Below are positions 48,970 through 49,791 of a DNA stretch of 64,000 nucleotides, one piece after another. Each line of letters opens with the position of its first letter. Within the stretch, counting starts at the first letter, position 1. The translations under genes and the position numbers were made by a program. A model generated the notes under the pieces. The model saw only the letters and a program-made list of their open reading frames with translations. It was not told the origin of the DNA and did not search any database. The DNA comes from Escherichia coli (GTDB lineage: Bacteria; Pseudomonadota; Gammaproteobacteria; Enterobacterales; Enterobacteriaceae), in NCBI RefSeq assembly GCF_003334305.1, contig NZ_QOWS01000015.1, one strand, 5' to 3'.

Positions 48970-49791
48970 ATGATGCACAGGTTGAATCTCAATGGCTATG
49001 AACCCGACCGACACCATGAAGCCGCGGTCGCATTTTGTATTCACGCCGGAACGGATGAGTTAACCAGTCCTGTACATCAGCACCGCAAAGGACAGCTGAT
49101 ACTAGCATTACATGGTGCAATTACCTGTACGGTGGAAAATGCTTTGTGGATGGTGCCGCCGCAATATGCGGTTTGGATACCGGGCGGGGTGGAACATAGC
49201 AATCAAGTGACAGCTAACGCTGAACTCTGTTTTCTGTTTATCGAACCCAGCGCAGTGACAATGCCGACAACATGTTGCACATTGAAAATATCGCCCTTAT
49301 GCCGGGAATTGATTTTAACCCTGGCAAACAGGACGACGACTCAGCGTGCTGAGCCGATGACCCGCAGATTAATTCAGGTCCTGTTTGATGAACTCCCTCA
49401 GCAGCCACAACAACAGCTGCACCTGCCCGTTTCTTCTCATCCTAAAATCCGCACGATGGTGGAGATGATGGCGAAAGGGCCCGTCGAGTGGGGGTCATTA
49501 GGGCAATGGGCTGGCTTTTTTGCGATGAGTGAACGCAATCTTGCGCGACTGATAGTAAAAGAGACGGGGTTGAGTTTTCGCCAGTGGCGTCAGCAGTTAC
49601 AGCTGATTATGGCACTTCAGGGATTAGTGAAAGGCGATACTGTACAGAAAGTTGCTCATACGCTGGGGTATGATTCAACAACGGCCTTTATTACTATGTT
49701 TAAGAAAGGCCTGGGGCAAACGCCAGGCCGATATATTGCGGGATTAACTACTGTTTCCCCACAATCAGCGAAACAAGACCCGCGGCAATAA
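48970..49791 (+). CDS. nimR: AraC-family regulator NimR (YeaM)
   Basis: 273-aa ORF with C-terminal AraC HTH region. Confidence 0.85.

Follow-up and report, generated by a model that had tools for sequence, protein, structure and literature searches.

Convergent genes with shared 3′ ends

In the window, which is the whole analysed stretch of 64,000 nt from an Escherichia coli contig (NZ_QOWS01000015.1), the genes nimR (also called yeaM) and yeaL are read toward each other from opposite strands, and their coding sequences run into each other at the 3′ ends (Table 1). ORF coordinates and RefSeq agree on the 44-bp overlap with the nimR stop inside yeaL, just as the first-pass annotation of this DNA had described it. 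Both are taken as real genes because Pfam domains support each of them: NimR carries AraC_binding at residues 22-147 and HTH_18 at residues 180-255, and YeaL matches DUF441 over residues 7-145 of its 148 (E=3e-44). NimR (YeaM) is known as a single-target regulator of the AraC family, a repressor of nimT (PMC5934670), and yeaL is annotated as encoding a DUF441 inner-membrane protein. Within the overlap, codon positions 1, 2 and 3 of nimR lie opposite positions 1, 3 and 2 of yeaL, which is phase 123:132.

Table 1. Features at the nimR/yeaL junction, in window coordinates
Feature	Position	Strand	Description	Basis
nimR (yeaM) CDS	48970..49791	+	273 aa, stop TAA at 49789-49791	ORF, RefSeq, Pfam
yeaL CDS	49748..50194	-	148 aa, stop TAG at 49750-49748	ORF, RefSeq, Pfam
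Shared 3′ coding region of nimR and yeaL	49748..49791	both	44 nt	ORF coordinates
NimR extension (residues 265-273 and stop)	49762..49791	+	turns the 17-nt overlap into one of 44 nt	alignment, junction DNA
yeaL codon 145 (GTG, Val)	49760..49762	-	first base complements the first base of the presumed older nimR stop	
Terminator-like hairpin GGCCUGG-CGUUUGCC-CCAGGCC	49708..49729	-	inside nimR codons	consensus scan, folding
U-tract UUUCUU	49702..49707	-	antisense of NimR Lys-Lys codons; predicted yeaL 3′ end; K-12 1874839-1874844	
Second terminator-like hairpin, weak U-tract	49777..49798	-	in yeaL CDS, 27 nt before its stop	consensus scan
C-rich, G-poorer stretch of untranslated nimR read-through RNA	49792..49951	+	opposite yeaL; weak candidate for Rho entry	

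The same junction is met throughout the E. coli genomes that were compared. A 1.4-kb query around the overlap is 100% identical to E. coli NZ_CP025916 and has matches in 5,412 of 5,426 complete E. coli genomes. K-12 MG1655 has the same 44-nt overlap in RefSeq, between yeaL (b1789, 1874352-1874798) and nimR (b1790, 1874755-1875576), and it is also annotated in NZ_CP025916 and in six more E. coli genomes, divergent ones chosen across the identity range; all E. coli sampled annotate it. In one of the six, strain 23CRST021 (L016, locus 171..1000), nimR is a frameshifted pseudogene beside an intact yeaL of the common allele. A search of 44000..56000 against Rfam returned no family match at gathering score, and a promoter scan of the nimR/yeaL region returned no promoter-like site.

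It is to be noted that the overlap is already known, both as an annotation and as an entry among catalogued overlapping transcription units. ExcludonFinder, which lists 165 convergent excludons for E. coli MG1655, names yeaL-nimR as one of them, the criterion being overlap of RNA-seq coverage in at least 50% of 58 transcriptomes (NAR 2025, PMC12288877). Convergent CDS overlaps in E. coli number 58 (PMC2174442). Being annotated, already listed and one of about 58 such pairs, the overlap as such is of little importance, and what is added here is modest: the Ile145Val substitution of YeaL as the apparent cause of the 44-nt form, the constraint on the yeaL frame only, and a candidate terminator held at synonymous sites.

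Overlap length and YeaL residue 145

For comparison, the locus was collected from ten genomes by exact protein look-ups, and one genome per species was scanned with a degenerate DNA pattern for an invariant 11-residue peptide, which gave 115 loci; the comparison spans about 120 enterobacterial species and 124 loci. In the species scan E. coli was represented only by the cryptic-lineage strain E69 (CP089930.1, L070). Typical E. coli, E. albertii and E. fergusonii were not among its loci, though typical E. coli fits the pattern. yeaL lies tail-to-tail beside nimR in 96 of the 124 loci and is not adjacent in the other 28. In every one of the 96 adjacent loci, yeaL closes at a nearby stop, a short and similar distance past the conserved GPLIAAG motif. 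The yeaL end is fixed, and it is the nimR stop whose position varies between species.

Counted over the species representatives in which yeaL is adjacent, 58 have an overlap of 17 nt and 15 one of 44 nt. Rarer lengths are 20 nt and 6 nt (three each) and single cases of 45, 29, 21, 4 and 0 nt, and a few species have a gap instead, of 4 nt, 5 nt (two cases) or 8 nt. The 44-nt form belongs to E. coli and many Citrobacter. The 17-nt form includes C. koseri, C. youngae ATCC 29220 and a cryptic Escherichia lineage labelled E. coli (L006, L070), the NimR of which is 90% identical. Outside E. coli, NimR orthologues are mostly 262-264 aa long and end in '...L-x-T-T-S-R/Q*', nine residues short of the E. 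coli end.

Why, then, does nimR run further in E. coli? Codon 265 of nimR is CAA in E. coli, and at the same position most orthologues, including the 63 loci with a 17-nt overlap, have the stop TAA or TGA. On the other strand, all 63 loci of the 17-nt form have Ile at YeaL residue 145 and all 16 of the 44-nt form have Val there; Val is also present in the cases of 20, 21, 29 and 45 nt. An Ile codon (ATY) at residue 145 gives TAA or TGA on the nimR strand, and a Val codon gives CAA. Codon 145 of E. coli yeaL is GTG, and therefore nimR reads CAA and runs on to the stop at 49789. The length of the extension is as expected by chance, since the nimR frame opposite yeaL, 149 codons long, contains nine stops and nine codons were added. 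Judged from the aligned junctions, the feature is a convergent overlapping CDS pair created by stop-codon loss. The 17-nt overlap is likely to be the older state and the 44-nt overlap the derived one, a polarity drawn from parsimony across genera, and a reversal may have taken place within the clade of Escherichia, Salmonella and Citrobacter.

Mutation of a stop codon is the main origin of convergent overlaps, and phase 123:132 is the commonest among those of at least 5 nt (Lillo & Krakauer 2007, PMC2174442). The nimR-yeaL pair resembles the stop-loss overlaps of that survey in its tail-to-tail arrangement, in its phase, in the run from a lost stop to the next chance stop, and in having orthologues with an earlier stop. 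It differs from them in that the causal substitution can be named, a conservative one located in the partner gene (YeaL Ile145Val), and in that a shorter overlap of 17 nt would predate the change. The pair may serve as a worked example of how one conservative substitution in a membrane protein lengthens a neighbouring regulator by nine residues.

Because most orthologues end nimR 27 nt earlier, one could suppose that one of the two frames really ends earlier in E. coli too and that the coding overlap is an artefact of annotation. Alignment of orthologues had been put forward in the first-pass annotation as the way to check this, and the alignment does show that nimR mostly ends earlier, with a 17-nt overlap; the E. 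coli call nevertheless stands, with CAA in place of TAA or TGA. E. coli nimR has no in-frame stop before 49789, on which ground the artefact was rejected. The yeaL TAG closes a DUF441 match that reaches residue 145 of 148 and keeps the same short distance from GPLIAAG in 96 of 96 loci. Stop codons, unlike starts, leave annotation no choice, and the earlier-ending orthologues overlap yeaL as well, by those 17 nt. An artefact is almost certainly not the explanation.

Which of the two frames does selection hold in the shared stretch? Entropy in the final 14 yeaL codons, taken over 89 distinct sequences, amounts to 0.48 bits at the first, 0.11 at the second and 1.17 at the third yeaL position. Such a pattern marks one coding frame, and only the yeaL frame is constrained. 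In their final 15 residues, the 16 taxa that have the 44-nt overlap share a single YeaL sequence, while NimR shows 13 sequences there with a mean identity of 70%. E. coli and the cryptic Escherichia lineage differ at eight places in the overlap, seven at third positions of yeaL, which are second positions of nimR, and one at a first position. All eight alter the reading of NimR, and the sole change in YeaL is V145I. The NimR tail begins past the last residue of the helix-turn-helix matched by Pfam. The Q269P polymorphism that NimR shows in E. coli (window 49775) is silent in yeaL. Judged by these comparisons, the NimR tail seems free of constraint, and the length of the overlap seems to be a by-product.

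Alternatively, the nine-residue extension might be functional, with the overlap dual-coding and under selection in both frames. The 273-aa NimR is essentially fixed in E. coli, where clusters of 3722 and 3116 members stand against 46 for the 264-aa form, and a tail of equal length is present in many Citrobacter. Against this, the tail lies outside the Pfam domains, its 13 variants in 16 taxa include radical changes such as Q/P and R/W, substitutions fall at second positions of nimR, as expected if yeaL alone is constrained, and most genera do without the tail. A functional tail was rejected as unlikely on account of its place outside the domains and its many variants, and we give it very little credence.

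Some further polymorphism of these residues was seen. Within E. coli, NimR is polymorphic for G258R (49741) and Q269P (49775), K-12 having R and P. A SNP at 49783 in O157:H7 (L013) gives R272W in NimR together with A138T in YeaL; no other difference among the sampled E. coli genomes replaces a residue in both proteins.

A terminator-like hairpin in nimR codons

Where do the two transcripts end? A terminator needs no intergenic space. The first-pass annotation had stated that no room is left for terminators between the two genes, and this does not hold on the yeaL strand, where a candidate hairpin followed by UUUCUU occupies 49729..49702, inside nimR codons. The same segment is K-12 1874817-1874844. 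The hairpin is written in the nimR codons Gly-Leu-Gly-Gln-Thr-Pro-Gly-Arg, and six of its stem pairs are G-C; the computed folding energies are -14.1 kcal/mol in the hairpin segment of 26 nt and -19.9 kcal/mol in the strand of 71 nt. Rho-independent terminators within the partner CDS have been counted in 21 of the 58 convergent overlaps of E. coli (PMC2174442). The yeaL candidate is like these in having a G+C-rich stem of 7 bp, a loop of 8 nt and a U-tract, and in beginning 19 nt past the stop within the partner CDS. It is unlike them in that its stem lies in codons of the most conserved helix-turn-helix motif of the AraC family, and in that it is a unidirectional candidate, the nimR strand being without a U-tract.

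The consensus scan found two terminator-like sites in the region, compared with 2.6 in shuffles, that is, no excess, and by itself the scan is weak evidence. The second site (Table 1) is probably a chance match; it is taken as such because it lies in translated sequence and because the two sites found do not exceed the 2.6 expected.

Conservation of the first hairpin is more telling. All 23 loci with the perfect 7-pair stem come from Escherichia, Salmonella or Citrobacter. None of the 28 loci that have no yeaL beside nimR shows it, though 13 of those 28 encode the identical peptide. The U-tract is UUUUUU in Salmonella and most Citrobacter. In 24 sequences of Escherichia, Salmonella and Citrobacter, the four synonymous sites of the stem have entropies of 0.50, 0, 0.25 and 0.25 bits, while 30 other fourfold sites of the same segment have a mean of 1.36 bits (one-sided Mann-Whitney p=0.0014) and the three synonymous sites of the loop have 1.72, 0.99 and 1.92 bits. 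If codons for this peptide are drawn according to their usage in 33 long ORFs of the window, the minus-strand RNA is expected to have a perfect stem by chance with a probability of 0.012, versus 0.23 for the plus strand. The Pro codon in the stem is CCA, which is needed by the minus-strand stem; CCG makes up 52% of local usage.

Beyond Escherichia, Salmonella and Citrobacter the stem has decayed. In the full set of 87 distinct sequences, only 71% of stem cells are paired versus 68% in shuffles, and two stem pairs are unpaired in most of these sequences. Conservation of the hairpin across all Enterobacteriaceae was rejected on those pairing figures, and it holds in one clade only. One stem pair covaries, from C-G to G-C in Enterobacter and relatives (window 49727 and 49710). 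This switch in Enterobacter consists of a synonymous Gly change, GGC to GGG, and a Gly-to-Ala replacement in NimR ('TPARY'), which makes a compensatory pair of one silent and one replacement change.

On these comparisons, it is fairly probable that the hairpin is the yeaL terminator in Escherichia, Salmonella and Citrobacter. The hairpin may instead be a by-product of the peptide and of codon bias, or may serve the nimR mRNA or the DNA rather than the end of yeaL. Indeed, GLGQTPGR is prone to palindromes, as the plus-strand figure of 0.23 tells; Klebsiella, Enterobacter, Kluyvera and others have the two genes arranged alike but the stem degraded; and the Term-seq supplements of PMC7815308 (E. 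coli) and PMC12207403 (TERMITe) contain no 3′ end of yeaL or nimR. The figure for the minus strand, however, is only 0.012, and the clade has hardly any of the wobble variants CCG and GGT, common codons with which a plus-strand stem would survive. Moreover, synonymous loop sites vary freely and stem sites do not, the U-tract is found on the yeaL strand only, and the stem is absent from 28 of 28 loci without an adjacent yeaL. We therefore consider a by-product, or a role for nimR or the DNA, to be an unlikely reading, though one with some claim to attention. If the hairpin does act as the yeaL terminator, then a conserved protein motif would contain a terminator in its codons, under constraint at synonymous sites. 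A practical caution follows: recoding or deleting nimR would alter the yeaL 3′ end too.

On the plus strand, the consensus scan of 48600-50600 found no intrinsic terminator-like site. In the 160 nt past the nimR stop the fraction of C is 0.38, that of G is 0.33 and then 0.20 in two 80-nt bins, and GC skew is negative. That the nimR read-through RNA is ended by Rho-dependent termination is a reasonable guess from this composition. Since nimR is without an intrinsic terminator, the two transcripts must overlap, by about 90 nt or more if the yeaL hairpin terminates; the yeaL mRNA would in that case be antisense to the last ~90 nt of nimR (49702..49791).

Overlapping transcripts and neighbouring pairs

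The claim of the first-pass annotation that the convergent transcripts must overlap is borne out: full-length mRNAs are complementary over at least 44 nt, and the pair is on the excludon list. Overlapping transcripts of these convergent neighbours are thus both implied by the CDS overlap and reported from RNA-seq (PMC12288877). Predicted terminators overlap in 146 of the 165 excludons of that list, and yeaL-nimR is like them in that its candidate terminator sits inside the neighbour's transcription unit. It differs in that the coding sequences themselves overlap, beyond the 3′ UTRs alone. In function, an excludon is marked by mutually exclusive expression of its genes and by processing through RNase III, while yeaL-nimR is known from the overlap of transcripts alone. 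In E. coli, mscL-arfA is a tail-to-tail pair like yeaL-nimR, and antisense RNA crosstalk between its two genes is reported (PMC10070815). The functional link reported there sets mscL-arfA apart from yeaL-nimR, for which none is documented.

What does the overlap do, if it does anything? We hold it as quite probable that the overlap is a neutral by-product of tight tail-to-tail packing and not a device, and that a terminator of yeaL is embedded in nimR codons. The 3′ end of yeaL would be held in place by selection on the last transmembrane segment. NimR would be complete at about residue 256, where the AraC-type helix-turn-helix ends, with a short free tail beyond it, the frame of which would run on, antisense to the end of yeaL, up to the first stop that chance provides. 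In most Enterobacteriaceae that stop comes 17 nt into yeaL, and part of it is the base opposite the first base of the YeaL Ile145 codon. In E. coli and in many Citrobacter residue 145 is Val; there the stop would have become CAA (Gln), and nine more codons are read to give the 44-nt overlap. Transcripts of yeaL probably end at the intrinsic terminator lying in the nimR codons of the conserved motif (49729..49702), and transcripts of nimR presumably run into yeaL in antisense, to be stopped probably by Rho or by collision. The anatomy, the agreement between Ile or Val at residue 145 and the nimR stop, the constraint on one frame and the conserved synonymous sites of the hairpin are shown here; termination at the hairpin, the way in which nimR transcripts end and the selective neutrality of the overlap are inferred.

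The pair could also be a functional convergent excludon, in which transcription of one gene represses the other through collision of RNA polymerases or cleavage by RNase III. If true, this would couple NimR, the repressor of nitroimidazole efflux, to YeaL. yeaL-nimR does belong to the MG1655 'excludome', with overlap in at least 50% of 58 transcriptomes (PMC12288877), 96 of 124 Enterobacteriaceae loci retain the two genes tail to tail, and an embedded terminator would ensure overlap whenever yeaL is transcribed. The listing, however, records transcript overlap only, and no report of reciprocal yeaL/nimR expression was found in the literature. In one dataset yeaL RNA is low, at 36 and 67 reads (PMC10294691), and collisions may be rare. 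Overlap length differs between species, from -8 to 45 nt, and bears no mark of selection, and nimR is without an adjacent yeaL in nearly a quarter of the loci. An interfering pair, as the first-pass annotation had suggested, is improbable on this balance. More improbable still is an elaborate form of the idea for Escherichia, Salmonella and Citrobacter, in which the yeaL terminator was selected inside the DNA-binding codons of NimR so that a duplex of at least ~90 nt works as a switch: transcription of yeaL would lower NimR and de-repress the nitroimidazole exporter NimT, or the reverse.

Tight packing is also seen around the pair. At higher coordinates than yeaL, yoaI (50364..50468, plus strand) and yeaK (50469..50972, minus strand) converge with no spacer, their stop codons standing back to back, and in Salmonella (L003) the same two genes overlap by 4 nt. 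On the other side, yoaF (about 47014..47268, plus strand) and yeaO (47290..47637, minus strand) converge at a distance of 21 nt. Both yeaK-yoaI and yeaO-yoaF are on the excludon list (PMC12288877); with yeaL-nimR, three listed pairs follow in a row within 4 kb, a dense tail-to-tail packing.

As for regulation near yeaL, a PhoB site has been placed in the yeaL-yoaI intergenic region (window 50195..50363), at K-12 1874218 (PMC10294691). In the same work PhoB strongly activates yoaI, with 12,266 reads versus 28 in the phoB mutant, and hardly affects yeaL, with 36 versus 67 (PMC10294691). yeaL has also been reported to be repressed by the sRNA UhpU (PMC12704781).
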